Source: Candidatus Omnitrophota bacterium (GTDB lineage Bacteria > Omnitrophota > Gorgyraeia > Pluralincolimonadales > Pluralincolimonadaceae). From it: a DNA stretch of 64,000 nt. The first letter of the stretch is position 1, and each line of letters starts with the position of its first letter. The DNA lies in NCBI GenBank assembly GCA_028716565.1, contig JAQUPL010000002.1, positions 96,670 through 160,669 on the forward strand, written 5' to 3'. Both the position numbers and the translations under genes were made by a program. Below the pieces are notes generated by a model. It searched no databases. It had not been told where the DNA came from and was given only the letters and a program-made list of their open reading frames with translations. Positions 11,371 to 63,864 of the stretch are shown piece after piece.

Positions 11371-11455
11371 TTTTTCAAGGAGGCGATTCGGTGAATCATA
11401 AACCAAGATCCGCAAAAAGGGGTTTTGGTTTTTTGGTTTAAGGAGTTGATTATTT

Positions 11456-13450: not shown

Positions 13451-13489
13451 AGTCATGCATATGAAATTCCAAAAAAAATCGCTCGTATT

Positions 13490-14683: not shown

Positions 14684-16091
14684 GCTCAAGATCAAGAAAC
14701 CGCAAGAAATTTTGTCAGAAGAAAGGCCGCTGGTAGAGCTTCCGGCGCTATTAAAAATATTATTGGTGCTCGTATTTTTTTTATTGGGCATCAGTCTGTT
14801 AATTTTTCCAAGCTATATCGTGTTGGCGCTATTTTTTGGGGTCGTTACGGCCATAGGCATATTATTTAATCCATTCATAGGGGCAATTTTATTTGTCGCA
14901 GCCGCGTACCTACATCCAATACAGCTTATGCCTGAATTAAAATATTCTAATCTTACGACTGCATTCGGCTTTATAATATTTCTTGTATGGGCTTTTCATA
15001 TTTTGATATATAGAGATTTCAAGGTTCCAAAGAGCAGGCAAATACCATATTTTATCGGCTTCGCGATTATTGCGACTGTCTCCTCCGCATTGCGCTGGGA
15101 AGAGAGTTCATTCTATTACGTAGACTTGCTCAAGGTATTTATATTGTATTTCTTGATCTCGAATTTAACAAAAACAAAAAAGCAAATTTCTATCATAGTA
15201 ATTGTTATGCTGATATTGGGATTTCTGGGAAGCATTTTAGCAGTATATCAGTATACCCATGGGTTAGGGTTGAAGATGTCGGGCGGCATCCTTAGGGTCA
15301 CGGGCTTCTCGGATAATCCCAATGATTTCGGCCTAAGCTTGTTATTGCTTATTTCGTTTAGCGTAGGGCTAGTCATGAAAAGCGGAAAATCGGCGCTTAA
15401 AATTACAGGGGCGTTATTAGTATGCGCGTATTTGTTAGGCATATTGATAAGTTTTTCGAGGGCGGTTTATCTCGGGCTGCCCGTGGTCTTGATCGTAAGT
15501 GTATGGAAATTCATAAACAAGGGAAAAAGATTTCTTACCGTCATAATCACCCTTATGTTATTTACCGTGGTGTTATTATTTTTGCCGCAGCAGTTCTGGA
15601 ATAGGATCAATAGCATAGTTATGACGGGGGCAGATCCGAGCATCTGGTCAAGGTTGGACGGGGATATCGTTGGATTAAAAATGATGGCGGCAAATCCCGT
15701 AATCGGAGTAGGTATAGGGCGTTGGAAACAGGAATATTGGCCCATCGCATACGCATCGCCGTTAATAAGGACAAAGTCATCTACCGTTCCGCACAATCTT
15801 TTTATAGAAGCCGGCGCTGAAACTGGCATCACAGGCTTGATTTTGTTTAGTTTGCTGATATTCCTCGCCCTCAGAGAATCGCAGCAATCAATCCGCATAT
15901 TTGAAAAGTCAAAGAATACTCTCTTGAGCGTATATTCCCAGTCGGCAAGTATAAGCTTGGTCGGTTTTCTCATATCCTCGATGTTTATTTCAGCGCTTCA
16001 TGTCAAATTTGTATGGATTATATTAGGATTTATTATAGCCCTTAGGAATATCGCATCAAAAATAGAATCTGAGGATCAAGGGATAAAATGA
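14676..16091 (+). CDS. O-antigen ligase/polymerase-like membrane protein (Wzy_C family)
   Basis: About 10 TM helices with a large periplasmic loop, typical of Wzy/WaaL-type proteins, and a glycan-cassette context. Confidence 0.6.
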   Translation: MDELKIKKPQEILSEERPLVELPALLKILLVLVFFLLGISLLIFPSYIVLALFFGVVTAIGILFNPFIGAILFVAAAYLHPIQLMPELKYSNLTTAFGFIIFLVWAFHILIYRDFKVPKSRQIPYFIGFAIIATVSSALRWEESSFYYVDLLKVFILYFLISNLTKTKKQISIIVIVMLILGFLGSILAVYQYTHGLGLKMSGGILRVTGFSDNPNDFGLSLLLLISFSVGLVMKSGKSALKITGALLVCAYLLGILISFSRAVYLGLPVVLIVSVWKFINKGKRFLTVIITLMLFTVVLLFLPQQFWNRINSIVMTGADPSIWSRLDGDIVGLKMMAANPVIGVGIGRWKQEYWPIAYASPLIRTKSSTVPHNLFIEAGAETGITGLILFSLLIFLALRESQQSIRIFEKSKNTLLSVYSQSASISLVGFLISSMFISALHVKFVWIILGFIIALRNIASKIESEDQGIK

Positions 16092-17233
16092 TAAAAGTGC
16101 TGCATTTGATGACAGCCTCGGAAAAAAACAGGGGGGTCGGAGGAGCGGAAACGCTGCTTTTATCGATAACGGAAAAGATGAGCAAAGAAGATATCGGATT
16201 TATTATCGCGTATACATCAGGAGGGATGCTAACCGATGATTTCAAAAAGGCGGGAGCTGAAGTCGTCCAGTTTGATACGGCAAGCCAGATAGATCTGCCC
16301 GCCGTCTTTAAGTTGGTGAAATTGATAAAAAGCAGAAATATCGATATCGTCCATTCTCACCAGCTTAGGTATGATTTCCTTGGGTCTATTGCAGCCAGGA
16401 TAAGCAAGACCCCTTTTATTTTTACTAGGCATCAATCTCTAAGTGATTATCCGATTAAAAGATTCAAGAAGGCGATTTTCTTAAATGTGGATAGGTTAAT
16501 TACAGTAAGGTCGGCGGATAAAATAGCAGCCGTTTCTAAATTTATTGCCGCTGACCTAATACGAAATGAATGGGTGCCGGCAGAAAGGATAGAGGTTATA
16601 TACTCCGGATTAGATCTGAAAAAATACAACAAGGAGGTAAGGGTAGGGAATATAAGAAAAGAATTTTCAATAGATCCCAGGGCCCCCCTTATCGGAACGG
16701 TAGGCAGGATAAACATCGAAAAGGCCCACGACCTGTTCCTGAAGGCGGCGGCCGAAGTAATAAAGGCGGCCCCTGATGCGAGATTCATAATAGCGGGAGA
16801 CGGCCCATTAAGGGAAAACCAGGAAAAGCTCTCGGAGGAATTAGGCCTGAAGTCAAAAGTGATATTTACGGGATACAGAAGAGATATTCCAGAGATAATT
16901 GCCGATCTCAACATATTCGCCCTCTCATCTCTTACCGAATCCCTGGGAATCGTAAATTTAGAAGCTATGGCCATGGGAAAACCCGTGGTCTCCTTTGATG
17001 TGGGAGGGGTCTCAGAGTTAGTGGCCGATAAGGAAACGGGCTTGTTGGTCCCTCCCAGGGATGCCGTCGCCTTCGCCGGCGCCATAATAGGCCTAATACA
17101 GGACAAGGGAAAAGCGAAAAATATGGGTTTGGCGGGAAGAAGGCGAGTAGAAGAAAACTTCACGCTGGATGCGACGGTAAAAAAATACCATGAATTATAC
17201 AATTCGATTGCAGAGGGCGGACAAAAGCAATAA
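16088..17233 (+). CDS. glycosyltransferase family 4
   Basis: ESLGIVNLEAMAMGKPVVSFDVGGVSELVADKETGLLVPP. Confidence 0.8.
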   Translation: MIKVLHLMTASEKNRGVGGAETLLLSITEKMSKEDIGFIIAYTSGGMLTDDFKKAGAEVVQFDTASQIDLPAVFKLVKLIKSRNIDIVHSHQLRYDFLGSIAARISKTPFIFTRHQSLSDYPIKRFKKAIFLNVDRLITVRSADKIAAVSKFIAADLIRNEWVPAERIEVIYSGLDLKKYNKEVRVGNIRKEFSIDPRAPLIGTVGRINIEKAHDLFLKAAAEVIKAAPDARFIIAGDGPLRENQEKLSEELGLKSKVIFTGYRRDIPEIIADLNIFALSSLTESLGIVNLEAMAMGKPVVSFDVGGVSELVADKETGLLVPPRDAVAFAGAIIGLIQDKGKAKNMGLAGRRRVEENFTLDATVKKYHELYNSIAEGGQKQ

Positions 17234-17234
17234 T

Positions 17235-18455
17235 ATGCCGAAAAAATTGAATATTCTAATGGCGACAGAGGCTTTTTATCCGGATGGGATCGGCGGGGCG
17301 CATACTTACGTCTATAATTTATCTAAATATTTGATACGGCAAGGTCACCGCGTTTATGTCATAACCATAAAGAACGGTGAAAGCGCATTAGCAGATGAGG
17401 ACATCGAGGGAATCAAAGTTTTAAGATATAAGACTCCGATTAGCGGGCTCTTCCTGTTCGTTAGGCGTCCGATATGTAGCATTATAAATTCCCGACGACT
17501 GTTTTGTTCTATAGCAAAAGAAGTAAAATTTGACGTCATTAATTTTCATTTAGCATTACCAGCTTTTGGTTTAAGCACTTGCTCATTTAGCAAGGGGATT
17601 CCGAAGATTTACACTTTTCATTCATCAATGGCCGGAGATGTAGCGGTCCAGGTAAAAAAGAAGAAATATTTTCCGTCATTCCTGAACAGCCTTGTTTTCG
17701 CGGTGATCAGATCTATTGAAAAGGCGGACTTAAAATGGTGCGATAAAGTAATAGTTTTAAGCGGTTTCAGCAAGCGGTGCCTGACGGAGATCTATAAACA
17801 GGATCCCGGCAAGATAACGATTATCCCAGGAGGGGTAGATGTAAACAAGTTCATTCCCGTTATCGACAAAATGCTGCTGAGAAAAGAGCTCTCCATTCCC
17901 GCGGACAAGACGGTCCTTTTGACTGCAAGGCGCTTGGTTGCCCGGATGGGGCTCGAGAACCTGATCTATGCCATGAGGCATGTGATTGAAAAAGAAAAGA
18001 ATGTGATCTTACTGATTTTAGGCGAAGGGTTTTTAAGGGAAAAGCTGGAACTGATCATAACGCAGAATGGCCTGAAAGATTACGTTATTCTTTTGGGACC
18101 GGTCGATACCGGTAAAATGAGCTCTTACTATCAGGCTTGTGATGCTTTTGTTTTGCCCACCGAGCAGGATGAATGGTTCGGGCTGGTTACTATAGAAGCG
18201 CTATCCTGCGGTATTCCGGTTCTCGGAACACCCGTGGGCGGGACTTCGGAAATATTGGGAAGCATCGATAAGGCGTTGTTATTTTCCGGGACAGGTGCTC
18301 GGGATATGGCCAAGGGTATATTGGATTTCCTCGGGAATAAGGATCGCTTTACTGGGAAGAGCCGCGAGTTCAGAAAATTCGCGGAAGATAATTACTCATG
18401 GGAGATTGTATCCCGGAAAACCGAGGATATTTATTTAAGCATCCTCGGAAAATAA
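17235..18455 (+). CDS. glycosyltransferase family 4
   Basis: EQDEWFGLVTIEALSCGIPVLGTPVGGTSEIL. Start set at ATG 17235 (MPKKLNIL), after the stop of the upstream gene, rather than 17190. Confidence 0.75.
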   Translation: MPKKLNILMATEAFYPDGIGGAHTYVYNLSKYLIRQGHRVYVITIKNGESALADEDIEGIKVLRYKTPISGLFLFVRRPICSIINSRRLFCSIAKEVKFDVINFHLALPAFGLSTCSFSKGIPKIYTFHSSMAGDVAVQVKKKKYFPSFLNSLVFAVIRSIEKADLKWCDKVIVLSGFSKRCLTEIYKQDPGKITIIPGGVDVNKFIPVIDKMLLRKELSIPADKTVLLTARRLVARMGLENLIYAMRHVIEKEKNVILLILGEGFLREKLELIITQNGLKDYVILLGPVDTGKMSSYYQACDAFVLPTEQDEWFGLVTIEALSCGIPVLGTPVGGTSEILGSIDKALLFSGTGARDMAKGILDFLGNKDRFTGKSREFRKFAEDNYSWEIVSRKTEDIYLSILGK

Positions 18456-18468
18456 ATAGAGAGGTTAT

Positions 18469-20106
18469 ATGAGATTTTTTCTGGAAGTAATTATTTTGAT
18501 AAGCATGATCCCAACATCTTCGGCTTCCGGTCCGGTTTCAGTAACGCCCACTCCCCAAGAAATAGAGATGAAAGGAGGGGCAGCAGTCTTATCGAACGAT
18601 TGGAGCATTGTATTGGACCAGAAAGATTCCAAAAATGCACTTACTGCTAGATACTTGGCGGATAAAATTAATGACCGATTCGGCCTTATTCTTAATCTGG
18701 AAGATGTGGCCCATCCAAATAAAAAAAACCATATTGTGTTAAGTAAACTTTCCGGACAAGAGCATAATAACATAGGAGAAGAAGGTTATGTGTTGATAGC
18801 CTCAGATGGGAATATTTCCATATCGGCAAATACCCAGAAAGGTATATTCTATGGCATGCAAACGCTGTGCCAGTTGATTAAAAAAGAAGCAAACAATATA
18901 ACGGTGCCGTTGCTCAAAATCGTTGATTATCCCAAGATAAAGATCAGGGCAGTGCATTTTAGCGGAATAAAGCCCGATAAAATAAAGGAAGAAATAGAAA
19001 AAATCGCCCAGCTTAAATACAATACGGCGATAATAGAATCGCAAGCTTATTTTAGCCTTGGCCAAAGCGAAAACAGGGAATTAATGGAAGAAATATTCCG
19101 TTACGCCCGCGAACTCTATATTGAACCTATTCCCGAGGTGCTTAGCTTTAGTTCAGCGCAGGGAATATTGGTAGGCGATCCTTATTCAGTCGAAGGAATA
19201 CGTAACGAAAATAAAAAGCTTAAATTCATAAATGATATTGCCCAACCAGAAGAATCAACTGTTGGGCCTCTGGTCAATGTGATAAGAGACGGAGAAGACG
19301 AAATAATAGTCAGAAGCGCGGATGGGAAAAAAGTATTTTCCGAACACAAGGATTATAAAGTCATTGATGGGCAGATATCCTTTCCCTTCAGTTCGAGTGC
19401 CGTTCCCACGCAGATCATGAGGATCCAAGATGGCGAGATAGAAAATGGAGAAGAGGTCCTGGTTTCCTATACTTATTTTGAAAATAAACCCTCGTTTAAT
19501 TTTCCGGATTGCGTGGCCACCTATTGTCCTTCCACGGAAAGGACATATAATGTAATGACTGAAACGATAGGGAACGTGCTTAATATATTAAGGCCGTCAT
19601 ATATCAGCATCGGCCATGATGAAATAAGGGGAATGAATAGGGACAATCGTTGCAGAAAAAGAAATCTAAGCAACGCGGAATTGTTGGCGGACGATGTGAT
19701 TAAACTTTTTAATATATGTAAAAGCGTTAATCCGGATGTAAATGTATTAATGTGGAATGACATGCTTAATCCTTATTATAACGGCGGCAATGCTGATTTT
19801 GAAGTACAGTATGGAGGCCTGCCCGGAGAGACATATCCGGCCATAGATTGGATTCCTAAAGACGTTATCCTAATGACGGCGGCATACGATCCAAATAAAA
19901 GTTTCTGCCTGAAAAGTTGCGATTATTTTGACTCGAAGCAATTTAACTACCTTGTTGCCGGTTGGAACAATAAGCAGAACATTGCCGAGTGGTCTGAAAT
20001 AGCCAAACAAAGAAGCAATTGCCTCGGTATCATAGAGACCACCTGGTATGATTGGGAAGGTAATTTTGAGAATATAAAATATGCAGCCGAAGTTTCCTGG
20101 CACTAA
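18469..20106 (+). CDS. secreted glycoside hydrolase, GH20-like (beta-N-acetylhexosaminidase/dispersin-like fold), tentative
   Basis: Signal peptide. A TPTPQEIEMKGG N-domain pattern, DYPKIKIRAVHF...KYNTAIIE, and SIGHDEI resembling the GH20 H-x-G-G-D-E catalytic motif. Assigned from memory of family motifs only. Confidence 0.4.
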   Translation: MRFFLEVIILISMIPTSSASGPVSVTPTPQEIEMKGGAAVLSNDWSIVLDQKDSKNALTARYLADKINDRFGLILNLEDVAHPNKKNHIVLSKLSGQEHNNIGEEGYVLIASDGNISISANTQKGIFYGMQTLCQLIKKEANNITVPLLKIVDYPKIKIRAVHFSGIKPDKIKEEIEKIAQLKYNTAIIESQAYFSLGQSENRELMEEIFRYARELYIEPIPEVLSFSSAQGILVGDPYSVEGIRNENKKLKFINDIAQPEESTVGPLVNVIRDGEDEIIVRSADGKKVFSEHKDYKVIDGQISFPFSSSAVPTQIMRIQDGEIENGEEVLVSYTYFENKPSFNFPDCVATYCPSTERTYNVMTETIGNVLNILRPSYISIGHDEIRGMNRDNRCRKRNLSNAELLADDVIKLFNICKSVNPDVNVLMWNDMLNPYYNGGNADFEVQYGGLPGETYPAIDWIPKDVILMTAAYDPNKSFCLKSCDYFDSKQFNYLVAGWNNKQNIAEWSEIAKQRSNCLGIIETTWYDWEGNFENIKYAAEVSWH

Positions 20107-20121
20107 TTTGAGGGAGGCAAG

Positions 20122-21258
20122 ATGAAGCCGCAAAAAATTAAGGTCATCTTGATATTCGGTACGCGCCCCGAGGTGATCAAGTCCGCTCCGGTAGTGAAGG
20201 AGTTGCGGAAATATCCAAAATCGATCGAGTCCAAAGTGATAATCAGCGCACAACACAGGAAAATGGCAGACCAATTCCTAGGTCTTTTCAAGATAAAGGC
20301 CGATTTCGATTTGAATATAATGCGACCTAATCAGACGCTCTTTGACGTTACTGGGAGGTGCCTGAAAAAACTGGAAGATATTTTAAGGAAAGAGAAGCCT
20401 CATCTCGTCCTGGTCCAGGGGGATACCACTACTTCTTTTACAGCCAGCCTGGCAGCTTATTACCTGAAGATAAAAGTCGGTCACGTAGAAGCAGGCCTTC
20501 GGACTGACGATAAATACAGGCCGTTTCCGGAAGAAATGAACAGAAGGCTTGTCAGCGCCATAGGGGATTTCCATTTTTCACCAACGACGAAAGCCAGGCA
20601 AAATCTTATAAAGGAGGGGATAAACCCTTCAAGCATCTACGTCACCGGTAATACCGTTATAGATTCGCTATTGGAAGTAGCGAGGAGAAAGTTTAGATTC
20701 GATGACCCGTTTTTGCAGAAGATCTGTTCTGGTAAAAGGAAGATAATATTAGTTACCGCTCACAGGAGAGAAAGTTTCGGAAAGCCCCTGGAATCCATAT
20801 GCGAGGCCCTTAAAGAGATAGCCCGACTCTATGATGTTGAAATTATATACCCTGTCCATCTCAACCCCAATGTCCAGGTGCCTGTAAGGAAAATTCTTGC
20901 AGGTATAAAAAATATCCATCTTATTGAGCCGTTGGAGTACGAGCCGTTTATTCACCTGATGAAAAGAAGTTATATAGTATTAACAGACTCAGGCGGAGTT
21001 CAAGAGGAGGCCCCTTCATTAGGGAAACCTGTCCTAGTCATGAGGGAAGTGACTGAACGTCCGGAGGGCATTAAGGCGGGGTGCGCAAAACTTGTCGGAA
21101 TGGATAAGAAAAGGATAATTTCCGCCGTTAAGAAGCTCCTGAATTCCAAGCCGGCATACAACAAGATGGCCAAATCGGTAAATCCGTATGGCGACGGGAA
21201 AGCAGCGAAAAGGATAGTGAGCGTTATTTTGCACTCAAGAAAAAGGCTTGTCAGGTAG
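20122..21258 (+). CDS. wecB: UDP-N-acetylglucosamine 2-epimerase (non-hydrolysing)
   Basis: IFGTRPEVIK, HVEAGLRTDDKYRPFPEEMNRRL and the overall WecB/MnaA architecture. Confidence 0.9.
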   Translation: MKPQKIKVILIFGTRPEVIKSAPVVKELRKYPKSIESKVIISAQHRKMADQFLGLFKIKADFDLNIMRPNQTLFDVTGRCLKKLEDILRKEKPHLVLVQGDTTTSFTASLAAYYLKIKVGHVEAGLRTDDKYRPFPEEMNRRLVSAIGDFHFSPTTKARQNLIKEGINPSSIYVTGNTVIDSLLEVARRKFRFDDPFLQKICSGKRKIILVTAHRRESFGKPLESICEALKEIARLYDVEIIYPVHLNPNVQVPVRKILAGIKNIHLIEPLEYEPFIHLMKRSYIVLTDSGGVQEEAPSLGKPVLVMREVTERPEGIKAGCAKLVGMDKKRIISAVKKLLNSKPAYNKMAKSVNPYGDGKAAKRIVSVILHSRKRLVR

Positions 21259-21261
21259 ACT

Positions 21262-22401
21262 ATGGCTGCATGGCTATTTTGGTTTTCGATAGGTCTAGTG
21301 GCGACTAGTTATTTCGGCTATCCTTTTATTATGGCCGTGTTAGCAGCTGTTTTGAAAAAGCCCTATGAAATAAAAGATATAGAACCATACGTTAGCTTGA
21401 TCATTCCTGCCCATAATGAGGAAAAAGTTATAGCCGATAAGCTTAATAATGCCCTGTCTCTGGACTATCCCCGGGATAAGTTCGAAATCTTGTTAATTCT
21501 GGATGGTTGTATTGATAAGACTAAAGCAATCGCCGCGGGTTACAAAGATTCTCGGCTGAAATTAATCGAGCAAAACCCCAGAAAAGGCAAAATGGCCGCC
21601 CTGAATTTAGCAGTTCCGCAAGCCAAGGGTGATATAGTCGTATTTACCGACGCGAATTCCCTCTACGAGAAAGATGCCATAAGAAAACTAGTAAGGAATT
21701 TTGCCGATAAAAGAATAGGTTGCGTGTGCGGAGAATTAAAATATCGCAACGAATCTCTGGTAGGAGAGGGCGAAGACCTGTATTGGAAATATGAAAAATT
21801 CATAAAGACAAACGAAAGTCGCTTATATTCTTTATTAGTAGTGAACGGTTCCATATATGCCATAAGGAAAGACCTGTTCGAACCGGTCGAAGAGACCCTG
21901 GCAGATGACTTTGTGGTACCCATGGTCATAGCCAAAAAGGGATACGGCCTTGTATATGAACCTGAAGCAGTTACCCTGGAAAAGACCGCAGCGAGCACAA
22001 AAGAAGGAATAAGCCAGAAAGCCAGGATCATCGCGCAGGGGCTTAAAGCCGGTTTTGCTGTCGGCCGGATCATTGTTTTGTCAGGGCCTCTGAGATTATT
22101 TCAATTCCTGTTCCATAAGTTTATCCGCTGGTTTGTTCCCGTTTTTTTAATTATAATGTTTCTATCCAATATATTTTTACTGAACGAGCCGTTCTATAAA
22201 GTTATATTTTTGTGCCAAGGTCTATTTTACATATTCGCGGCGATCGGCCATTTACTGGAAAAAAATAACGTAAAGATAGGCATCTTCAAAATCCCGCTTT
22301 ATTTTTGTGTGGTCAACTTGGCCTCGGCCATCGGTATAATCAAGTTTTTGACAGGCGGGATAAAGGCAACCTGGGAAAAAGCGGAAACAACAAGAGGATA
22401 A
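21262..22401 (+). CDS. glycosyltransferase family 2 (membrane-anchored)
   Basis: SLIIPAHNEE, ILDGCIDKT and a DxD-like TDANS motif, plus C-terminal TM helices. Confidence 0.75.
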   Translation: MAAWLFWFSIGLVATSYFGYPFIMAVLAAVLKKPYEIKDIEPYVSLIIPAHNEEKVIADKLNNALSLDYPRDKFEILLILDGCIDKTKAIAAGYKDSRLKLIEQNPRKGKMAALNLAVPQAKGDIVVFTDANSLYEKDAIRKLVRNFADKRIGCVCGELKYRNESLVGEGEDLYWKYEKFIKTNESRLYSLLVVNGSIYAIRKDLFEPVEETLADDFVVPMVIAKKGYGLVYEPEAVTLEKTAASTKEGISQKARIIAQGLKAGFAVGRIIVLSGPLRLFQFLFHKFIRWFVPVFLIIMFLSNIFLLNEPFYKVIFLCQGLFYIFAAIGHLLEKNNVKIGIFKIPLYFCVVNLASAIGIIKFLTGGIKATWEKAETTRG

Positions 22402-49177: not shown

Positions 49178-51250
49178 ATGGTAAAGGTAAGGTTCGCCCC
49201 GTCTCCGACGGGTTTTCTCCACATAGGAAGCGCGCGGACCGCGCTCTTCAACTGGCTCTTTGCCAGGCACATGAAAGGCACTTTTGTCTTCAGGGTGGAG
49301 GACACCGACAGGGAGCGCTCGAAAGACGAATTCCTTCAGGAAATAATATCTTCGCTCGAATGGATGGGGATGAATTGGGACGAGGGGCCGTTTTACCAGA
49401 CGAAACGGCTCGATGTCTACCGCGAATACGCCAAAAGGCTGCTTAAAGAAGGAAAGGCGTATGAGGCGGAAGGGACGCTTGGCGGCGAGAAAGCGGTGAT
49501 CCTTACCATGCCAAAAGTGACGATGACGATGGATGACATCGTCCACGGCCCGGTCTCCTTCGATATGAACCTGCAGAAAGACCTCGTACTCATGAAGTCG
49601 GACGGATTTCCCGCCTATAATTTCGCGTGCGTCATCGACGATCATGACATGAAGATCACCCATGTGATACGCGGCGACGACCATATATCGAATACGCCGA
49701 AACAGCTGGCGGCCTACCAGGCTCTCGGTATCGAGCCGCCGAAATTCGCGCATATACCCCTTATACTGGGGACGGACCGTTCGCGGATGTCAAAACGCCA
49801 CGGCGCGACTTCTATCTCGGAATACAAAGAGATGGGTTTCCTTCCCGACGCCCTCGTCAATTACATCTCCCTTTTAGGCTGGGCGCCGACAGGCGACCGC
49901 GAGGTGATGCCGATCGACGAGATAATAAAGGAATTTTCCCTCGAGAGGGTCGGGAAGACCGGCGCCGTATTCGATATAGACAAACTGATCTGGATGAACG
50001 GCGAATATATCAGGGCAAAAAAGACGGAGGACCTGGTCCCATTCGTCGCGCCGAGGCTTAGAGAGAAAGGCGTAATAGGAGACGACTACGATAAGGTGCG
50101 GCTCAAGGAGGCGGTGGAGCTTTTTCATCCCCGCGCGAAGACGATCGCCGAACTAGCCGATTCGACCGCTCCGTTTTTCACAGACGACGTGGTTTACGAC
50201 GAAACCGCGGTCGCTTCTGTACTCGCCAAGGAAGGGGTAAAGGCAAAACTGGAGGCTGTTATCGCGAAATTCGGGCCGCTCAAGGCGTTCGATCCGCAGG
50301 CGCTCGAGGCCTGCGTCAGGGACCTTGCCTCGGAGTCGGGCGTTAAGGCGGCGGATCTCATACATCCGGTCCGCGTAGCCGTCACTGGCCGGAAGGTTGG
50401 CGCGAGCCTCTTCGAGACCCTTTCCCTTATCGGAAAAGAAAAGACGTTGGCGCGCCTTAAAGCGGGCCTCGCGAAGGCCTTATCGGTCGTGATGGCGGCC
50501 GGGCTTTTGATGACATGCCGGGATCTGCGGGCGGAGAAGATATACTACAAAGACGGAACTAAGGTCACGGAACAGGTGATCGGCCGTGATAAGAGATCGG
50601 TCTGGATCAAAGACCCCTCGGGGAATATCGCCGTAAACCCGGATCGCATACAAAAGATCCTGAATGATGACGGGTCGGTCTCCAAGTATGATTACGGGAC
50701 GATACTGAGGACGATAGAAGAGAAAGTGAGGGCCGGAAATTACAATGAGGCCGCGGACTTATGCGACCTTTTAGTGCAATCGTTCCCGAAGAGCAACGAG
50801 GTCCATTACCTTCGGGCGGTGCTTAACCAGAAGGCCGGAAGATTTTCCAAGACCGCAGAAGATTACAAATTCATAATCGACAGCAAGTATAGCGACGCCA
50901 AGGTCTTTAACAACCTCGGCGCGATATACGCCGCGGATAAAGACAACCGCAGCGCGATGGAGATGTTCAAGAAAGCCGCGGAGATGAACGGCGATATGCC
51001 AGAAGTCCATTATAACCTCGCCTTCCTGTTCCTGCAGGAGAAGGACTACGATAAAGCGATAGATGAATACAATAAAGTGATAGCCAAGGAGCCCGATAAC
51101 ACCACGGCCTTGTATAATCTCGGCGTAGCCTGCGCGTTTAAGGGGGATTTTGCCGGGGCGAGGGAGCGGTTCGAAAAAGTCATCGCGATAGACAAAGGCG
51201 ACGAAAGCGCGACGAAAGCGCTTAAGGCGCTTTTGAGAAAAAATAAGTAG
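49178..51250 (+). CDS. gltX: glutamate--tRNA ligase with in-frame C-terminal hydrophobic segment plus TPR-repeat extension
   Basis: Class I HIGH (PSPTGFLHIG) and KMSKS-like (RMSKRHG) motifs in the first ~440 aa. The frame then continues through ALSVVMAAGLLMTC into about 240 aa of TPR-like repeats with no intervening stop. Confidence 0.8.
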   Translation: MVKVRFAPSPTGFLHIGSARTALFNWLFARHMKGTFVFRVEDTDRERSKDEFLQEIISSLEWMGMNWDEGPFYQTKRLDVYREYAKRLLKEGKAYEAEGTLGGEKAVILTMPKVTMTMDDIVHGPVSFDMNLQKDLVLMKSDGFPAYNFACVIDDHDMKITHVIRGDDHISNTPKQLAAYQALGIEPPKFAHIPLILGTDRSRMSKRHGATSISEYKEMGFLPDALVNYISLLGWAPTGDREVMPIDEIIKEFSLERVGKTGAVFDIDKLIWMNGEYIRAKKTEDLVPFVAPRLREKGVIGDDYDKVRLKEAVELFHPRAKTIAELADSTAPFFTDDVVYDETAVASVLAKEGVKAKLEAVIAKFGPLKAFDPQALEACVRDLASESGVKAADLIHPVRVAVTGRKVGASLFETLSLIGKEKTLARLKAGLAKALSVVMAAGLLMTCRDLRAEKIYYKDGTKVTEQVIGRDKRSVWIKDPSGNIAVNPDRIQKILNDDGSVSKYDYGTILRTIEEKVRAGNYNEAADLCDLLVQSFPKSNEVHYLRAVLNQKAGRFSKTAEDYKFIIDSKYSDAKVFNNLGAIYAADKDNRSAMEMFKKAAEMNGDMPEVHYNLAFLFLQEKDYDKAIDEYNKVIAKEPDNTTALYNLGVACAFKGDFAGARERFEKVIAIDKGDESATKALKALLRKNK

Positions 51251-55185: not shown

Positions 55186-55524
55186 ATGGATGTATACTTT
55201 GTTAACAGCAAATTGGGAAAGATTTTTAATAGCGAGAGGAATTTGCGAAAAAAATATGGCCCAATTTCAGACAAGATTAAACAAAGGCTAGCCGAGCTTA
55301 GGGCGGCTAGTACCTTATCGGAAGTATCTCAGTATCCGCCCGCCAGATGTCACGAGCTAAAAGAAAACCACAAAGGACAATTCGCAGTTAATGTTAGTGA
55401 AAATAAAAGATTGATATTCGTACCCCATAACCACCCTACTCCTCTCAAAGTTGATGGTGGCATAGATTTAACTAAGGTTACTGAGATTTGTATCATAGAC
55501 GTACTGAATTACCACCAAACTTAA
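55186..55524 (+). CDS. higB: HigB-like toxin (RelE/ParE superfamily, plasmid-killer type)
   Basis: 112 aa. ...CHELKENHKGQFAVNVSENKRLIFVP...EICIIDVLNYHQT parallels HigB (LHPLKGDREGYWSIRVN..RI.F...GDAYILNYEDYH). Immediately followed by an HTH antitoxin gene. Confidence 0.65.
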   Translation: MDVYFVNSKLGKIFNSERNLRKKYGPISDKIKQRLAELRAASTLSEVSQYPPARCHELKENHKGQFAVNVSENKRLIFVPHNHPTPLKVDGGIDLTKVTEICIIDVLNYHQT

Positions 55525-56601
55525 ATGTATAACACAAAAAAATATAAATTTAATCCTGATTATGCTGTTGCTCCCGGGGAGACGGTATTAGAATACCTCA
55601 ATCATCTAGGGATGACTCAAGCAGAATTGTCTACTAGAACGGGCAGACCATTAAAAACAATTAATGAGATTATAAAAGGGAAACAAGCCATAACACCGGA
55701 AACTGCGCTGCAATTCGAAAGAGCGCTTGGAATGACTGCTAGCTTCTGGAATAATCTCGAAAAAAATTATCGTGAAGTATTAGTTGGCAATAGAGAAACT
55801 CGACTTCTAGGAAATCATCTTGAATGGCTTAATAAAATACCAGTTAATGGCATGATAGCCAATGAATGGATAAAGAAATGTGACAACCCTGTTTATCAAT
55901 TGCAGGAAGTTTTATCTTTTTTTGGAGTTGCAAGCCCAAGAGAATTATCTGCAAACTGTTCTCAGGTTGTTTATAGACAATCCAAAAAATTAAGAGGTGA
56001 CCCTTGGGCAATTTGCGCATGGTTAAGAGAAGGGGAGTTAGTAGCTCAAGCCATAACTTGCGATGCTTATGATAGTGCGAAATTCCGTGCCGCTTTAAAT
56101 ACAATAAGAGGAATGACGGTAGAACCTATTTCTGATGTTTTGGTTAAATGGCAAAGTCTTTGCGCTGAATGCGGAATCGCTCTAGTTCTTGTGAAGGAAC
56201 TCCCAAATTTAAAAGTTAATGGCGCTACTCGTTGGATATCAAAAGACAAAGCCGTTATTCAGCTTTCATTGTTATATAAGTTTGCCGATATATTTTGGTT
56301 TACTTTTTTTCATGAAGCAGGCCATATATTATTGCATGGCAAAAAAGAAGTCTTTATTGAAAGCCATGGTAAAGAAAACAATAATGAAAAAGAAGCAGAT
56401 GAATTTGCAGAAAATATTCTGATACCAAAACGTGAATATAGTACATTTATTAATGCAGATAGTTTTACTTATGAAGATATTATAAAATTTTCTAAAAAAA
56501 TTGATATTTCCCCAGGAATTATACTTGGTCGTTTGCAATTTGAAAAGAGAGTACCTTACAATAGTTTTAGTAGTTTAAAACAAAGATTTTGCTGGAAGTG
56601 A
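55525..56601 (+). CDS. higA: HigA-like XRE-HTH antitoxin fused to ImmA/IrrE-family (COG2856) zinc-metallopeptidase domain
   Basis: N-terminal HTH (AVAPGETVLEYLNHLGMTQAELSTRTGRPLKTINEIIKGKQAITPETALQFERALGMTASFW). C-terminal HEAGHILLH (HExxH) together with ...EKEADEFAENILIP is typical of ImmA/IrrE peptidases. Confidence 0.65.
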   Translation: MYNTKKYKFNPDYAVAPGETVLEYLNHLGMTQAELSTRTGRPLKTINEIIKGKQAITPETALQFERALGMTASFWNNLEKNYREVLVGNRETRLLGNHLEWLNKIPVNGMIANEWIKKCDNPVYQLQEVLSFFGVASPRELSANCSQVVYRQSKKLRGDPWAICAWLREGELVAQAITCDAYDSAKFRAALNTIRGMTVEPISDVLVKWQSLCAECGIALVLVKELPNLKVNGATRWISKDKAVIQLSLLYKFADIFWFTFFHEAGHILLHGKKEVFIESHGKENNNEKEADEFAENILIPKREYSTFINADSFTYEDIIKFSKKIDISPGIILGRLQFEKRVPYNSFSSLKQRFCWK

Positions 56602-56613
56602 GAGGGAAATACT

Positions 56614-57381
56614 ATGACGATAGTAGAGATAGCTGATAAAATTGCAAACAATGCATGGTATGGAGTAATTTTTATAGCAGGTTTAGTAACAAAGTATGTT
56701 TTTGATTTATACAAAAACAAGATATCTAAACTACAGTACTCTATTAACAAATCTCTTCTTGGGGCATCAAACCAGGATAATTACTTAGGGAACGTCCAAG
56801 TTCTGTATAATGGTAAACCCGTAGAAAATCTTTATCTGTGCAATATCAATCTCGTTAATACGTCTAATAAAGATTTTAAAGATATTGAGATAACTGTATG
56901 GAGTGACATTGATAGTATTATTCTTGTTTCGAATGCTCTCAAAGCAAAAAGCATATATGCTCTGTCATTAACCCAAGCGTATGTAGAGCAAAGTAAGACT
57001 ATAACAGACCAAAATGTAAAATTAATTAATTCAAGGCGCCCTTATTTAATTCCTGTTTTGAATAGGGATGACAGTATCACTTTTTCGTGTCTTGTAACAA
57101 ATCCAAATAAAGCCGAACCAAATATATACTTAAATTGCGACTTTCCTGGATTAAAGATAGAGCCAACTTTTACAAAGCCAAAGTTATTTTGGAGGGAAAA
57201 TCAGGATACCGCGGCTCTGTACGGACTGCTTATTACCGCCATTATTTCAATATTTGTGACGCATTATTTACAATCTAAAGCTATCATTGCTTTGATTATA
57301 TTTATACTTGCCGCATTTTTGTTAATCCCAGGTGTTATAGTACTGAAAATATTAAAAAGAATTAGAAAATTGATAAGGTAG
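56614..57381 (+). CDS. hypothetical membrane protein (N-terminal TM helix, beta-rich middle, two C-terminal TM helices)
   Basis: Hydrophobic segments AWYGVIFIAGLVTKYVF and LLITAIISIFV...IIALIIFILAAFLLIPGVIVL. No recognisable family. Island cargo. Confidence 0.35.
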   Translation: MTIVEIADKIANNAWYGVIFIAGLVTKYVFDLYKNKISKLQYSINKSLLGASNQDNYLGNVQVLYNGKPVENLYLCNINLVNTSNKDFKDIEITVWSDIDSIILVSNALKAKSIYALSLTQAYVEQSKTITDQNVKLINSRRPYLIPVLNRDDSITFSCLVTNPNKAEPNIYLNCDFPGLKIEPTFTKPKLFWRENQDTAALYGLLITAIISIFVTHYLQSKAIIALIIFILAAFLLIPGVIVLKILKRIRKLIR

Positions 57382-57820
57382 ATTAAGATACGGTGCCCTC
57401 GTCTAAATCATATTGGATTCTGGATCCACGAAATATAGCTTAACCGTCTGTATTCCAAGTGGTTATATCAAAATAGTGCTTAATTTTTATAGTATTTTGT
57501 CTGGAAATTATGAGTAGAGCTGTCTGGAGCACCGTCTGGGCGCTGTCTGAGACTTATGAGAGCGATTGTCAGCACGCTATGAGGCACTTATTAGAGACAT
57601 GCAAGAAAAGTAAGGCTCTCATTATTTTGTTAATATGCCCGGTCGTTAAGCACAAAAGTATGGTATTCAATCATAATGAGCAAGAAAAGCCAAATTGATA
57701 AATGGTCTAAACTTTATGGTAGGCCAATAACCGAGGAAGAATACAGGCAGATTTGCGATGATTTAAGTAGATATTTCAAAACATTGCATAAATGGAATAA
57801 ACAAAACGAAAGTAAGTTAA

Positions 57821-58732
57821 ATGCCGGATAAAGCCATGTATTCAAATTATGTTCTCGCTTTAATTGATGTTTTAGGGCAAAAAGAACTTTTCCAAGGTTT
57901 CGACGATAGTTTCTTAACTGTTGTTGATGACCCCAGATTAGTAGCAATTCATAAAAATACAGTTATGGCGGTTGAGGAATTACGTGGAATTTTAGAAGGT
58001 TTTCTTAAGACTTTCACTGAAAACGGGGTAAGCGAAGAAGTAATTTCTAGGATACCACCTGATAAAGTAGACCAGTTCAGAGAAATGAGGAAGACCGAAG
58101 TAATAACTTATCGGTTTTCTGATTGTATACTTGCATACTCATCATTACAGAAAACAAAATATTGCTCCCCGGCAATGAATAGCGTTTATGGTATATTAAT
58201 GGCATGCGGGATAATGATGACTCTATCACTAGCTAGAAAAAAAGTATTTAGAGCCGCGGTAGATATTGGATTGGGGACGCTACTATCTAATGGAGAAGTA
58301 TATGGCCCCGTTTCTTATAAGGTTTATAAAATGGAAAGTTCAATAGCCCAATATCCGCGGATAGTAATAGGAGATAATCTTCATGCATATCTGACATCTT
58401 TATCACATGAGACAAAACAGTTTGAAGGCCAAACCGCAGAAGACATTAAATTATGTAAAGAAGAAGCTGGCATTTGCCTAAAAATGATTGTTCGAGACTT
58501 AGATGGCTATCCAATACTTGATTATTTAGGTGATACATTTAAAAACTGTTTAGGCGACGGCTATAATCATCCCGACGGCAGTATTAAAGAAGAAGAAATA
58601 TTGAATAAAGCCATGTATTTTATAAGGGAAGAATATGATAAAAAAAGGAAAATGAAAGATAGCAAACTAGCATTACGATATTTCTTACTTCTTAATTATT
58701 TTAAAGCTAGAATACCCAAAAAGAACATTTAA
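57821..58732 (+). CDS. hypothetical protein with class-III-nucleotidyl-cyclase-like palm-domain motifs (tentative)
   Basis: ALIDVLGQ (compare FADIVGFT), RFSDCILAY (compare KTIGDAYMA) and RAAVDIGLG...GPVSYKVYKMESSIAQYPRIVIG (compare RIGIHTG...GDTVNLASRMES...IL VS). Followed by a C-terminal extension of about 120 aa. Assignment rests on motif recall only. Confidence 0.35.
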   Translation: MPDKAMYSNYVLALIDVLGQKELFQGFDDSFLTVVDDPRLVAIHKNTVMAVEELRGILEGFLKTFTENGVSEEVISRIPPDKVDQFREMRKTEVITYRFSDCILAYSSLQKTKYCSPAMNSVYGILMACGIMMTLSLARKKVFRAAVDIGLGTLLSNGEVYGPVSYKVYKMESSIAQYPRIVIGDNLHAYLTSLSHETKQFEGQTAEDIKLCKEEAGICLKMIVRDLDGYPILDYLGDTFKNCLGDGYNHPDGSIKEEEILNKAMYFIREEYDKKRKMKDSKLALRYFLLLNYFKARIPKKNI

Positions 58733-58745
58733 TCAGGACGGTTAA

Positions 58746-58964
58746 TTAAAGGAAATAGTTTATATTTTTCCTGTAAATTTTAGCAAATTCTTTTAATTGT
58801 ATTAAATCCACTCTTCGCTGTCCAGCCTCTATTTTAGAAACATATGATTGTGTTCTGCCGAGTAGTTTTGCAACGTCTTCTTGTTTAAGCTTTCTCGATT
58901 TACGAGCTTCTATAAGCTTTTTAACGAGAATTTTATGACCTTCACTATAGATTGTCTTGTCCAT
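58746..58964 (-). CDS. XRE-family HTH transcriptional regulator (Cro/CI-like)
   Basis: LKQEDVAKLLGRTQSYVSKIEAGQRRV is a classic HTH_3. The only convincing minus-strand gene in the window, and divergent from the zinc-ribbon gene. Confidence 0.7.
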   Translation of the reverse strand: MDKTIYSEGHKILVKKLIEARKSRKLKQEDVAKLLGRTQSYVSKIEAGQRRVDLIQLKEFAKIYRKNINYFL

Positions 58965-60550: not shown

Positions 60551-60623
60551 CACGTAATTGGTAATACCAGTTACGTAGTTATACAAAAATTAAAATCTTA
60601 TATATAATGTGCCAAAATCTAAC

Positions 60624-60640
60624 TCTAGAACCGTTCTAGA
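60624..60640 (+). promoter_or_regulatory. perfect palindromic operator TCTAGAAC-C-GTTCTAGA downstream of a TATAAT box (60603-60608)
   Basis: 8+1+8 inverted repeat lying 45-60 nt upstream of the paralogue A start. A second near-palindrome, ACGTAATTGGTA-A-TACCAGTTACGT, lies at 60553-60577. Confidence 0.5.
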
Positions 60641-60686
60641 GCGACACGATTTTGGCTTTTTTATGTACATTATTTACAAAGGAAAA

Positions 60687-61412
60687 ATGAAAATGAATAC
60701 AGCGAAGCTACGGAATATTAAAGATTGCATAAAAATCTGTCTCGAAAAGGGGGCTAAAAATGAGAATGAATTTATATCAATGCGCTACAGCATTATTTGC
60801 GAGTTGAAAAAGGCAGGCTTGGGTCAATATGAAATTGAAGAAATTATGATAGGCTGGTGCAAGAAGAATTATAAAGATTTATCTTATGTAGAATTTAAAA
60901 AACAAATCGTAGAATGCATCGAAATAATTTTTAAAAAGGATGCTAAAGCTGGTTGCGGATATATATCAGAGAATATCTTTTGTGTAGACGGGTGCAAATA
61001 CATGAGAACTAATCGGAGGAAGGGCAGCATAAAATTATCTGGAGAAAAATTTTGTACTGAGGATGAAATAGAGAAATGTTTGAAAAAATACGCTAAATGC
61101 CTCCATCCAATGGAATGTGCAAGAGTATACAAAATTATGGATACCAGAAGAGTTGAATTGGGGCTATTAAGAGAAGAAGCTTTTAATATGTCTTACGGGG
61201 ATATAGCAGATAAACTTTGGGTAACCGATGTCTCAACTGCAAATCCGAAGCAAGTGCATAGATTTGTCAACGAACTTATTGATAGCAAACTTTTAGAAAT
61301 GGTCACTATTAATGGAAAAAATAATTTTCATAGTCAAGCAAGAAGATACAAGCTGAAAACTCCAGAAGACATTTATAGTAATAAATTGTTTAACCTGCTT
61401 AATGAGCACTAA
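60687..61412 (+). CDS. hypothetical Cys-cluster protein, tandem paralogue A
   Basis: Shares KDAKAGCGY..EN.FC..GC.Y, LGLLR and KLKTPEDIY blocks with paralogue B. ATG 60687 (MKMNTAKL) chosen by analogy with paralogue B's start MNMNTLK. Confidence 0.4.
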   Translation: MKMNTAKLRNIKDCIKICLEKGAKNENEFISMRYSIICELKKAGLGQYEIEEIMIGWCKKNYKDLSYVEFKKQIVECIEIIFKKDAKAGCGYISENIFCVDGCKYMRTNRRKGSIKLSGEKFCTEDEIEKCLKKYAKCLHPMECARVYKIMDTRRVELGLLREEAFNMSYGDIADKLWVTDVSTANPKQVHRFVNELIDSKLLEMVTINGKNNFHSQARRYKLKTPEDIYSNKLFNLLNEH

Positions 61413-61486: not shown

Positions 61487-62206
61487 ATGAATATGAATAC
61501 ACTAAAAGATGTCAGAGATTGCGTGATGAAAAGTCTTAATGACGGTGTTTCAGATTTGCATGAATTTAGAATCATGCGGTACGGAATTATTTGTGAATTG
61601 AAAAGGATAGGATGCGGAAAAGACAGAATCGAAGAAATTATGAAACGCTGGAATGAAAAAAACTATAAAAAATTATCATTTAAAGATTTTAGAGAGCAAG
61701 TCAAAGTGTTTATTGATTGGGTATTCAAAAAAGATGCAAAAGTGGGATGTAATTATTTTACTGAAAATATGTGCTGTATAGCCGGGTGCAGGTATAAAGA
61801 GAATAAGATTAAAGAAGACAACAAGAAATTATCCGAAGAGGTTGTTTATACCCAAAGCGAAATAGAGAAATTCTTGACAGAATATGACGAATGCAAACAT
61901 TCAAGAGAATGTTCAATAGTTTATAAAATAATGGACAACAAAAGAGTTGCTCTGGGTTTATTAAGAAAACAAATACTTTATATGTCATTTGAAGAAATGG
62001 CAAAAATGCTTTGGGAGAATGGGTATTCAACTGCAAAGCCTATGAATGCGTGTAGATTTGTAAGAGAATTAGTTGACAGCGGACTCTTAGAAATAGTCGA
62101 AAGAGGAAAAAAGGGCAATTTTCATAGTCTAGCTAACGGCTACAATCTGAAAACTCCAGAAGATGTTTACAATAAAGACTTGTTTGAGTACTCTGACGGA
62201 CTATAA
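61487..62206 (+). CDS. hypothetical Cys-cluster protein, tandem paralogue B
   Basis: About 40% identical to paralogue A over its full length. AAGGAGG SD 8 nt upstream. Confidence 0.45.
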   Translation: MNMNTLKDVRDCVMKSLNDGVSDLHEFRIMRYGIICELKRIGCGKDRIEEIMKRWNEKNYKKLSFKDFREQVKVFIDWVFKKDAKVGCNYFTENMCCIAGCRYKENKIKEDNKKLSEEVVYTQSEIEKFLTEYDECKHSRECSIVYKIMDNKRVALGLLRKQILYMSFEEMAKMLWENGYSTAKPMNACRFVRELVDSGLLEIVERGKKGNFHSLANGYNLKTPEDVYNKDLFEYSDGL

Positions 62207-62547: not shown

Positions 62548-62730
62548 ATGGACAGCAGACTTTTGGGGATAGATGAATTATCGCAGTACTTGGGAATAGC
62601 GAAAGGCACTCTCTACGTTTGGGTGTGTCACAGGGAGATACCCTACCTAAAAGTCGGTAGATTAGTAAAGTTTGATTTACCAGAGATACAAGGCTGGCTC
62701 AAGAAGAGAAGAGTAAAGGAATTGCCTTGA
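62548..62730 (+). CDS. AlpA/Xis-family DNA-binding protein (excisionase-like)
   Basis: 60 aa. LGIDELSQYLGIAKGTLYVWVCHREIPYLKVGRLVKFDLPEIQGWL is the AlpA-type HTH. Immediately upstream of the integrase. Confidence 0.65.
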   Translation: MDSRLLGIDELSQYLGIAKGTLYVWVCHREIPYLKVGRLVKFDLPEIQGWLKKRRVKELP

Positions 62731-62787: not shown

Positions 62788-63864
62788 ATGGGAGTATACG
62801 AAAAGAACGGAAACTGGTATATACGCTACTACATTGGTGACAAAAACGTAAGAAGAAAAGTAGGCCCAACCAAGGGTCTAGCTGAAATTGCGCTTAAAAA
62901 GATAAAAGTTGCGATGGCCGAGGGCAAATATTTAGATATAAAGAGAGAACAGAAGATTAAGTTTGAAGAATTCGCTGATGAATATATAAAGACACACTCA
63001 AAAACAAACAACAAATCTTGGGAACAAACCGACCTTCATACTGTTAAGTGCTTAAAAGCATTCTTCGCTGGTAAGTATCTAAGCGAAATAACTCCTCAGA
63101 TGGTGGAGCAATTTAAAGCAAAAAGAGTAACAGAAGTAAAGCCGGCTACTACCAACAGGGCGCTGGCGTTACTGAAGTCTATTTTCAATAAAGCTACAGC
63201 ATGGAATAAGTTTGATGGTCGAAATCCAGTTAAAGGAATTAAATTTTATAAAGAACACCCAAGACTTCGTTTTTTGGAAAGGGAAGACATTACTAAATTA
63301 ATAGACAATAATACCGAACCTTTAAAATCAATAGTCATAATCGCTCTAAATACTGGAATGAGAAGAGGAGAGATATTTAATCTTAAATGGCATGACATAG
63401 ATTTTGAGAGAGGGATAATTAGTTTATACCAAACAAAGAACGGGGAACAAAGAAAAGTCCCAATGAATGAGCAAGTCAAACAGACTATTATTGCGGTAAG
63501 AAAGACGCCGGATAGTCCTTACATATTCTGCAATAAAGACAAAAGACCATACTGCGATATAAGAAAATCATTTTTTACAGCATGCGATAAATGCGGTATA
63601 ACTGATTTTCATTTTCATGATTTAAGACATACTTTTGCTTCTCAATTGGTAATGTCGGGTATCGATTTAAATACAGTCAGAGAGCTGTTGGGGCATAAAA
63701 CCATTGAGATGACGTTGCGGTATGCTCACCTTTCGCCGGACTTCAAGAAACGAGCAGTTGACATCCTAGGAAGGAAAATAGGCATTCTTCCAATGCCCGT
63801 TCAAAAAGAAGCGGAAAAGACAGAAGTTTTTAAAATTGCAACTACGGCATTTATTCAAGAATAA
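62788..63864 (+). CDS. tyrosine-type site-specific recombinase/integrase
   Basis: N-terminal SAM-like domain. Catalytic region ...RRGE...HDLRHTFASQLVMSGIDLNTVRELLGHKTIEMTLRYAHL carries the R..H..R..Y signature. Confidence 0.9.
   Translation: MGVYEKNGNWYIRYYIGDKNVRRKVGPTKGLAEIALKKIKVAMAEGKYLDIKREQKIKFEEFADEYIKTHSKTNNKSWEQTDLHTVKCLKAFFAGKYLSEITPQMVEQFKAKRVTEVKPATTNRALALLKSIFNKATAWNKFDGRNPVKGIKFYKEHPRLRFLEREDITKLIDNNTEPLKSIVIIALNTGMRRGEIFNLKWHDIDFERGIISLYQTKNGEQRKVPMNEQVKQTIIAVRKTPDSPYIFCNKDKRPYCDIRKSFFTACDKCGITDFHFHDLRHTFASQLVMSGIDLNTVRELLGHKTIEMTLRYAHLSPDFKKRAVDILGRKIGILPMPVQKEAEKTEVFKIATTAFIQE

Follow-up and report, generated by a model that had tools for sequence, protein, structure and literature searches.

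Does the gene at 57821..58732 in a 64,000-nt stretch of Candidatus Omnitrophota DNA (contig JAQUPL010000002.1, positions 96,670 to 160,669 of the forward strand; hereafter the window) code for a nucleotide-signalling enzyme, and does this enzyme work together with a neighbouring gene in antiphage defence? An earlier note on this DNA had read the 303-residue product as a protein with cyclase-like palm motifs and had paired it with the membrane protein encoded at 56614..57381, in the manner of Pycsar (pyrimidine cyclase system for antiphage resistance) or CBASS (cyclic-oligonucleotide-based antiphage signalling system). The assignment of the fold proved to be sound and the pairing did not. We hold, with moderate confidence, that the gene (here called the cyclase-fold gene) encodes a member of the class III cyclase superfamily which acts alone, as a homodimer, and transfers nucleotidyl groups with the help of metal ions. 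The gene is mobile and has a probable role in genetic conflict without a dedicated effector.

The model generated by AlphaFold2 (predicted local distance difference test, pLDDT, 92.4; predicted template modelling score, pTM, 0.91) has the palm topology β-α-α-β-β-α-β of a cyclase homology domain (CHD). A structure comparison, which had been suggested as a check of the palm assignment, returned as best matches, by a clear margin, class III cyclases which form cyclic nucleoside monophosphates (cNMPs). Two metal-binding Asp residues, one on β1 and one on the β2-β3 hairpin, are aligned with the FxD and the GD of class III enzymes. We are highly confident that the palm fold and the catalytic Asp residues are assigned correctly. 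The core is thus a class III nucleotidyl-cyclase domain (CHD/palm) that has diverged strongly, and it is followed by a conserved helical hairpin.

The motifs that had been proposed as palm signatures (among them LALIDVLGQ, RFSDCILAY, and RAAVDIGLG) turned out to be the conserved core of a real protein family and occur in the class III order (Table 1). In the maximum-accuracy alignment produced by hhalign, which is of low statistical confidence but consistent with the order of the motifs, and which served as a guide to this order alone, FxD-x-x-G corresponds to F-I-D16-V-L-G-Q, K-x-I-G-D to R-F-S-D101, R-I-G-I-H-T-G to R144-A-G-I-D-V-G, and D-V-W-G-x-x-V-N-x-A-x-R-M-E to E159-I-Y-G162-P-A-L-x166-x-A-Y169-x170-L-E172. 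The C-terminal part of about 120 residues had been described as unique to this protein, but it is conserved family-wide (D226, D228, D234, K282, R286, Y287, and Y293). The hairpin 223-237 within this part probably belongs to the cyclase core, its acidic sequence DLDGYPILDYLG probably representing the β7-β8 arm of the cyclase domain with Asp residues in place of the class III Lys.

Invariant positions were taken from an alignment of 62 sequences (D16, Q20, D101, R144, Y161, G162, E172, P179, R180, and G184), and column counts from 260 non-tandem homologues. The metal-binding residues are retained throughout (D16 in 255/255, D101 in 255/256), so that a lack of conservation of the Asp residues among homologues, which had been named as grounds for giving up the palm assignment, was not observed. 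R144, G162, E172, P179, and R180 are present in each of the 260 sequences. Nearly as strict are Q20 (254/256), S100 (244/256), and Y161 (256/260), an acidic residue (D or E) at position 148 (254/260), and the Asp residues of the hairpin (D226, 257/260; D228, 253/260; D234, 243/260). Y169 is found in 228 of the 260 homologues and is replaced by His in 20 more. The positions which correspond to the class III transition-state Asn and Arg on the partner-facing helix α4 are variable: position 166, the Asn slot, is occupied by Y (63), F (46), A (46), S (27), or E (24), and position 170, the Arg slot, by E (89), K (20), H (19), D (16), or T (15), these being the counts among the 260 sequences. At these sites, the protein from the window carries Y166, Y169, and K170. 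Because the slots of Asn, Arg, and the substrate Lys are variable while Y169 is near-invariant, the catalytic machinery beyond the two Asp residues has been remodelled. As Asn and Arg are replaced and extra invariant acidic residues are present, the enzyme may catalyse a reaction other than the formation of a cNMP.

The protein might be an inactive pseudo-cyclase that binds a nucleotide and has a sensory or regulatory function, comparable to 6YII, an ATP-binding protein similar to class III cyclases. We consider this improbable: metal-binding Asp residues that are essentially invariant in 260 sequences are the signature of a retained catalytic site, the loss of Asp is confined to one half of the tandem members described below, where it goes together with a coherent set of residues, and there is no output domain. 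Alternatively, the same fold and dimer might carry out another palm chemistry, such as synthesis of linear or cyclic oligonucleotides (GGDEF-, Cas10-, or mCpol-like), polymerisation without a template, or the attachment of a nucleotide to a protein or small molecule. We regard this as unlikely but worth keeping in view. The best structural matches are clearly cNMP-forming class III cyclases, the GGDEF and GGDD signatures are absent, and primer- or template-binding domains are not evident.

In three family members (P0123, P0133, and P0146), the entire module occurs twice in tandem, and the halves of these proteins were aligned to the family. The N-terminal halves are degenerate: D16 is represented by D, E, and E, D101 by G, N, and N, and E172 by A in each case, and S100, E154, G184, and D228 have been lost as well, the loss of D228 being confined to these halves. 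They retain Y166 and Y169 and have His at position 170 in 3/3 cases. The C-terminal halves, conversely, have kept the entire acidic set, while Y169 is changed to F, F, and C and positions 166 and 170 drift. Complementary degeneration of this type is the pattern of the mammalian C1/C2 pair and of other pseudo-heterodimeric class III cyclases. From the complementary losses we infer that two protomers pair head to tail and that α4 of each completes the metal site of the other; such a composite active site is likely, as far as the degeneracy of the tandem fusions can indicate. Residues retained by both halves (Q20, R144, Y161, G162, P179, R180, D226, D234, and Y293) are presumably structural or required on both sides. 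The degeneracy may also be read as a mutational map, with D16, D101, E172, and D228 on one side and Y166, Y169, and position 170 on the other. The same dimer organisation, with one tandem clade included, has been reported for Pycsar cyclases (PMC11224242).

A search for homologues yielded 147 proteins, nearly all with 285-310 residues, every one of which is annotated as "hypothetical" and none of which has a Pfam domain. A profile search against 1.84 billion representatives returned 7,428 clusters (representatives at 50% identity) at E ≤ 1e-3; with the stricter cutoff of E ≤ 1e-30 there were 1,216. Nearly all of these proteins, too, have about 300 residues. Copies occur in GTDB genomes from Omnitrophota, Planctomycetota, Nitrospirota, Acidobacteriota, Pseudomonadota, Desulfobacterota, Verrucomicrobiota, Bacillota, Chloroflexota, Myxococcota, Campylobacterota, and several candidate phyla. 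The distribution covers more than 12 phyla and is patchy. Homologues from the cultured organisms Amphritea opalescens (locus L049) and Pseudomonas sp. RIT-PI-r (L064) make the question of function directly testable. The gene was found in none of 50,697 phage genomes and in one of 2.9 million IMG/VR contigs. Plasmids gave five distant matches, all "hypothetical protein", and neither phages nor plasmids gave an annotated relative. The literature and family libraries searched contained no earlier description of the family, a search of PDB sequences with the family profile gave no meaningful match, and the only match of the window protein in PHROGs was a weak one (phrog_23933, 0.0041). The family is best classed as a large, previously unannotated one with a known fold and probably the same two-metal chemistry, a branch that is invisible to sequence profiles.

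When Pfam was searched with the 62 members at E ≤ 10, only noise was obtained, including weak matches to RdRP_2. The latter concern seven members of the 62-member alignment (A1), with a best E-value of 4e-4. They probably reflect remote similarity through the palm that the family has in common with polymerases, and are no evidence of a polymerase function.

The genomic neighbourhood was compared at 85 loci other than the window. All-versus-all clustering of the open reading frames (ORFs) within 4.5 kb (BLASTP, 50% coverage) gave no neighbour family present at more than four loci. More sensitive clustering of the 461 ORFs within 2.5 kb (local BLASTP and phmmer) gave nothing at more than three loci apart from the generic XRE-type helix-turn-helix (HTH) domain, and a Pfam/PADLOC census of the immediate same-strand neighbours (40 upstream, 28 downstream) revealed no family with more than two members. 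The cyclase-fold gene is, with little doubt, a solitary and self-contained cassette which has no dedicated receptor or effector gene.

These results bear directly on the proposed two-gene system, in which the product of the cyclase would activate the membrane protein encoded at 56614..57381. Since neither a recurrent partner nor a shared domain occurs at the 85 loci, a pairing similar to Pycsar or CBASS is unsupported. The co-occurrence of the two genes, which the earlier note had wished to see examined, was found at none of these loci: a homologue of the membrane protein is encoded beside 0 of 85 other family members, which largely refutes the model. No domain for cNMP binding is recognisable in the membrane protein, the PADLOC models for PycC and for the CD-NTases (cGAS/DncV-like nucleotidyltransferases) do not match the cyclase-fold protein at E ≤ 1, and the CBASS enzymes have a different fold (Pol-beta nucleotidyltransferase). 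The membrane protein had been called an orphan; its gene is better placed as the last of three in an operon at 55186..57381, which resembles the three-gene architecture of PD-lambda-2 (PMC9519451) and which the cyclase-fold gene adjoins without being a member. This assignment follows from the matching layout and from the intergenic distances, which are 0 nt between the HigB-like gene and the HTH-peptidase fusion gene and 12 nt between the fusion gene and the membrane protein gene, against 439 nt between the latter and the cyclase-fold gene. Of all models considered, the two-gene system is the least supported, and we consider it highly improbable.

What, then, might a solitary enzyme of this kind do? 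In a stand-alone nucleotidyl-transfer enzyme, an acidic cluster from one protomer (D16 and D101 together with E172, E154, and D228) would bind the metal, and α4 of the partner would supply Y169 and, in addition, either an aromatic side chain at position 166 or a His at position 170, in the canonical Asn/Arg slots. The reaction would be a divalent-metal-dependent nucleotidyl transfer, putatively on a nucleoside triphosphate (NTP). By default one would expect it to be cyclised to a cNMP, but the very acidic, remodelled pocket may give another product, and we consider a cNMP as product rather doubtful. The altered catalytic residues would, if this reading is correct, suggest a different product or mechanism. 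The role may be directed against phages or mobile genetic elements, for example by infection-triggered consumption of NTPs or by a nucleotide that is read by unlinked factors. Since the gene is solitary, horizontally spread, and often found in defence islands or integrative elements, a stand-alone role in conflict appears most likely; defence as such is plausible, at somewhat less than an even chance. A lone cyclase-fold enzyme would then follow a different logic from known systems, be it nucleotide depletion, a signal to core cellular factors, or non-cyclase nucleotidyl transfer. Whereas the fold, the metal-binding Asp residues, the size of the family, its solitary genes, and their horizontally acquired surroundings are shown by the data, the composite dimer, the NTP as substrate, and the role in defence are inferred. 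Tentatively, the protein might even represent a new class of single-protein immune enzyme, a homodimer with a remodelled, acidic, Tyr-bearing active site that, upon infection, makes a nucleotide product which known class III cyclases do not make, or collapses an NTP pool.

Known defence proteins account for about 12-18 of 68 immediate neighbours. They include a type I HsdR, Dsr1 (twice, once 13 nt upstream), mad3/6/8, SoFic, a type IV restriction enzyme, Shedu SduA, PD-T4-6, a DrmC-like phospholipase D (PLD), and several PADLOC candidate families, and they are accompanied by resolvases and IS110. DUF5677 is the sole domain which is both fused to family members (P0187 and P0253) and encoded next to one (a single locus); it has no relative in the PDB or in PADLOC.

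Two individual loci deserve mention. At L001 (2311..8722) and also at L002, a tight four-gene array codes for a Dsr1-like protein (1225 residues, PADLOC 5.3e-103), the cyclase-fold protein, a DUF5677 protein (458 residues), and a protein of 127 residues, with gaps of 13, 31, and 14 nt. A gene for a type I HsdR precedes the array, and nowhere else does the family gene have an operon-like setting. Locus L010 (7069..12897) is mirror-symmetric, with PLDc_2, Bro-N, SnoaL_2, and the family gene recurring in inverted order after about 9.7 kb, which is probably an assembly hairpin artefact.

Several points weigh against the reading as a stand-alone conflict enzyme. The transition-state Asn and Arg on α4 are not conserved among the 260 homologues, nor is the base-specifying substrate Lys, the slot of which is variable, so that cyclase activity is not to be assumed. 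To our knowledge, there is no established precedent for a solitary cyclase without effector as a defence system. The cyclase-based defences that we know of (Pycsar, CBASS, type III CRISPR, and Panoptes) all couple a synthase with a receptor or effector. The window protein has no match in Pfam, NCBIfam, or PADLOC at E ≤ 1. This includes the profile search with PF00211 (Guanylate_cyc) that had been recommended for it, and PF00211 is silent also for the 62 family members at E ≤ 10. A comparison of the family by hhalign with seven genuine CHD sequences gave a probability of less than 1%. The model of the tandem member P0123 (pLDDT 52.7, pTM 0.42, from a multiple alignment of 3 sequences) is too poor to show the dimer geometry. 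The enrichment of defence genes near the family is suggestive only, as the share of such neighbours was counted without a computed baseline. Many loci have housekeeping neighbours (MutS, GatB, Ldh), and the locus in the cultured Amphritea is flanked by a MocR-type regulator, FixG, and UmuC. DUF5677, when tested alone, gave no protection (PMC12632615).

The housekeeping flanks at many loci would suit an ordinary second-messenger cyclase, which makes cAMP or cGMP for cellular signalling and has its receptors encoded elsewhere in the genome. The class III fold and the invariant metal-binding Asp residues agree with this as well, and stand-alone bacterial CHD proteins are known. We nevertheless consider it quite unlikely. 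The gene is distributed patchily across phyla and resides in low-GC islands with integrase, resolvase, insertion sequence, and defence genes as neighbours; sensory or regulatory domains are lacking; the canonical Asn/Arg and the base-specifying Lys are missing, and PF00211 is silent.

Table 1. Coordinates of the cyclase-fold gene, of its conserved segments, and of the genes surrounding it in the window (residue numbers refer to the 303-residue protein).
Feature	Coordinates	Strand	Remarks
Cyclase-fold gene	57821..58732	+	ORF list; soluble protein, 303 residues
β1 motif LALIDVLGQ, residues 12-20	57854..57880	+	Holds D16 and Q20; counterpart FxDIxGF(T/S)
β2-β3 hairpin RFSDCILAY, residues 98-106	58112..58138	+	Holds D101; counterpart KxIGD, paired with KTIGD by hhalign
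β4 motif FRAAVDIGLG, residues 143-152	58247..58276	+	R144, acidic 148; counterpart mRiGihtG
Helix α4 and next strand, EVYGPVSYKVYKMESSIAQYPRIVIG, residues 159-184	58295..58372	+	Column counts; comparison of tandem halves
Acidic β-hairpin DLDGYPILDYLG, residues 226-237	58496..58531	+	Conserved Asp residues; model strands 223-225 and 231-233
C-terminal helical hairpin, residues 257-297	58589..58711	+	Helices 257-277 and 281-297, pLDDT >90; conserved family-wide
HigB-like gene	55186..55524	+	Pfam HigB-like 1.2e-5
Xre-HTH/M78 peptidase fusion	55525..56601	+	HTH_3 2.9e-10, Peptidase_M78 9.5e-7, PADLOC PD-Lambda-2_B 8.3e-32
Membrane protein, 255 residues, C-terminal transmembrane (TM) helices	56614..57381	+	12 nt after peptidase-fusion gene
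XRE-family HTH gene	58746..58964	-	Pfam HTH_3 1.7e-12; convergent, 13 nt downstream of cyclase-fold gene
Zinc-ribbon protein gene, C-terminal TM helix	59002..59667	+	Divergent from XRE gene, 37 nt
Tyrosine integrase	62788..63864	+	Pfam Phage_integrase 9.5e-38, Int_N 7.4e-10; right end of low-GC island

The cyclase-fold gene itself, which had been called as an ORF of 303 codons, is real according to the ORF list. An alternative start, M6 at 57836, would result in a protein of 298 residues; it was chosen by the gene caller on an identical public contig (L094), the copy there being the identical protein. TM segments are absent and the computed isoelectric point is 6.9. A further ORF of 51 codons (57676..57831), called also on the identical public contig, overlaps the ATG at 57821 and stops 4 nt before the alternative start. 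No conserved counterpart of this small ORF was found upstream of the homologues. The upstream gap of 439 nt, when searched for a riboswitch or structured RNA, gave no Rfam match and a folding z-score of +0.44, which does not point to an unusually stable fold.

The gene is cargo of a low-GC, integrase-bearing island. From about 55 kb onwards, as far as the window reaches, the GC content is 0.32-0.38, compared to 0.46-0.57 in the preceding 20 kb. The earlier note had considered the island AT-rich and bounded by an integrase; composition and integrase are as described, but only the integrase end of the island lies inside the window, attachment (att) repeats were not found in the window, and there is no tRNA gene in 48-64 kb. 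The toxin-antitoxin (TA) module and the XRE regulator that had been placed nearby are both present, the former as the HigB-like/HTH-M78 pair (55186..56601).

With a TA-type module elsewhere on the island, the cyclase-fold protein might itself be the toxin of a TA-like pair under the control of the adjacent XRE gene. Indeed, an XRE-type gene neighbours the family gene at 6 of the 85 loci, and three of these share the convergent arrangement of the window. However, the other 79 loci have no XRE neighbour, the XRE HTH being a very common domain; convergent genes do not form an operon; and the XRE gene of the window is divergently paired with the zinc-ribbon/TM gene. The link between the XRE gene and the cyclase-fold gene is weak, and we regard a TA toxin as very improbable.

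The XRE gene and the zinc-ribbon/TM gene resemble a small regulator/cargo module of the island. Further along the same low-GC island are two adjacent paralogues (60609..61412 and 61487..62206; 49% identity over 233 residues) without a match in the family libraries, which precede a small HTH-like ORF (62548..62730) and then the integrase. Elsewhere in the window, an ORF for 690 residues (49178..51250) may represent an uncommon fusion, as it combines a glutamyl-tRNA synthetase-like N-terminus with a long C-terminal extension, TPR-like by eye. The GC content is lowered also at about 11000..22000 (0.39-0.44 compared to flanks of about 0.50), and this region, too, may have been acquired horizontally.

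Among known systems, PD-lambda-2 (Vassallo et al., 2022) is the one resembled by the operon next to the cyclase-fold gene, which likewise has a HigB-like gene, an Xre-HTH/peptidase fusion, and a third gene. It differs in that the PADLOC models for components A and C have no match in the window operon, and in that the published third gene is P4 antitoxin-like, whereas the third gene in the window codes for a membrane protein unrelated to PD-lambda-2C. The operon may thus be a PD-lambda-2 variant with a membrane component.

As to the cyclase-fold protein, CBASS is separated from it by the palm/CHD fold, which is not that of a Pol-beta CD-NTase, by the silence of PADLOC, and by the lack of a conserved effector. 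The palms of GGDEF proteins and of Cas10/mCpol, including OptS of Panoptes, have a lower structural similarity to the family than class III cyclases have. RFSD takes the place of the GG[DE]EF motif, and the best structural match is not a GGDEF protein. GGDD is likewise absent, and the family is associated neither with type III CRISPR genes nor with an effector of the Panoptes type; mCpol, by contrast, has an effector gene dedicated to it. The defining feature of Pycsar is a neighbouring gene for an effector that binds cNMPs (PycTM or PycTIR); none accompanies the family at the 85 other loci, and the neighbours in the window lack cNMP-binding and TIR domains. The PycC enzymes (PDB 8JSF, 8JSZ, 7R65, and 6YII) keep the class III catalytic motifs, which the cyclase-fold family does not, and none of the corresponding PADLOC families is matched at E ≤ 1.

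Closest are the class III CHDs, for example, those of Rv1264 and Rv1900c from Mycobacterium tuberculosis, of CyaB from Pseudomonas aeruginosa, and of the mammalian adenylyl cyclases (C1/C2). The family differs from these in being invisible to profiles (PF00211 silent, hhalign below 1%) and in having the near-invariant Tyr169 and an extra acidic cluster in place of Asn, Arg, and the substrate Lys. It also has two insertions, a long helical one between β1 and β2 (residues ~24-90) and a helix that precedes the last hairpin, as well as the conserved C-terminal helical hairpin, and it occurs without sensory domains, as a mobile and solitary gene. If our reading is correct, a very large and widespread set of "hypothetical" proteins would be a distinct branch of the class III superfamily that is recognisable only by structure.
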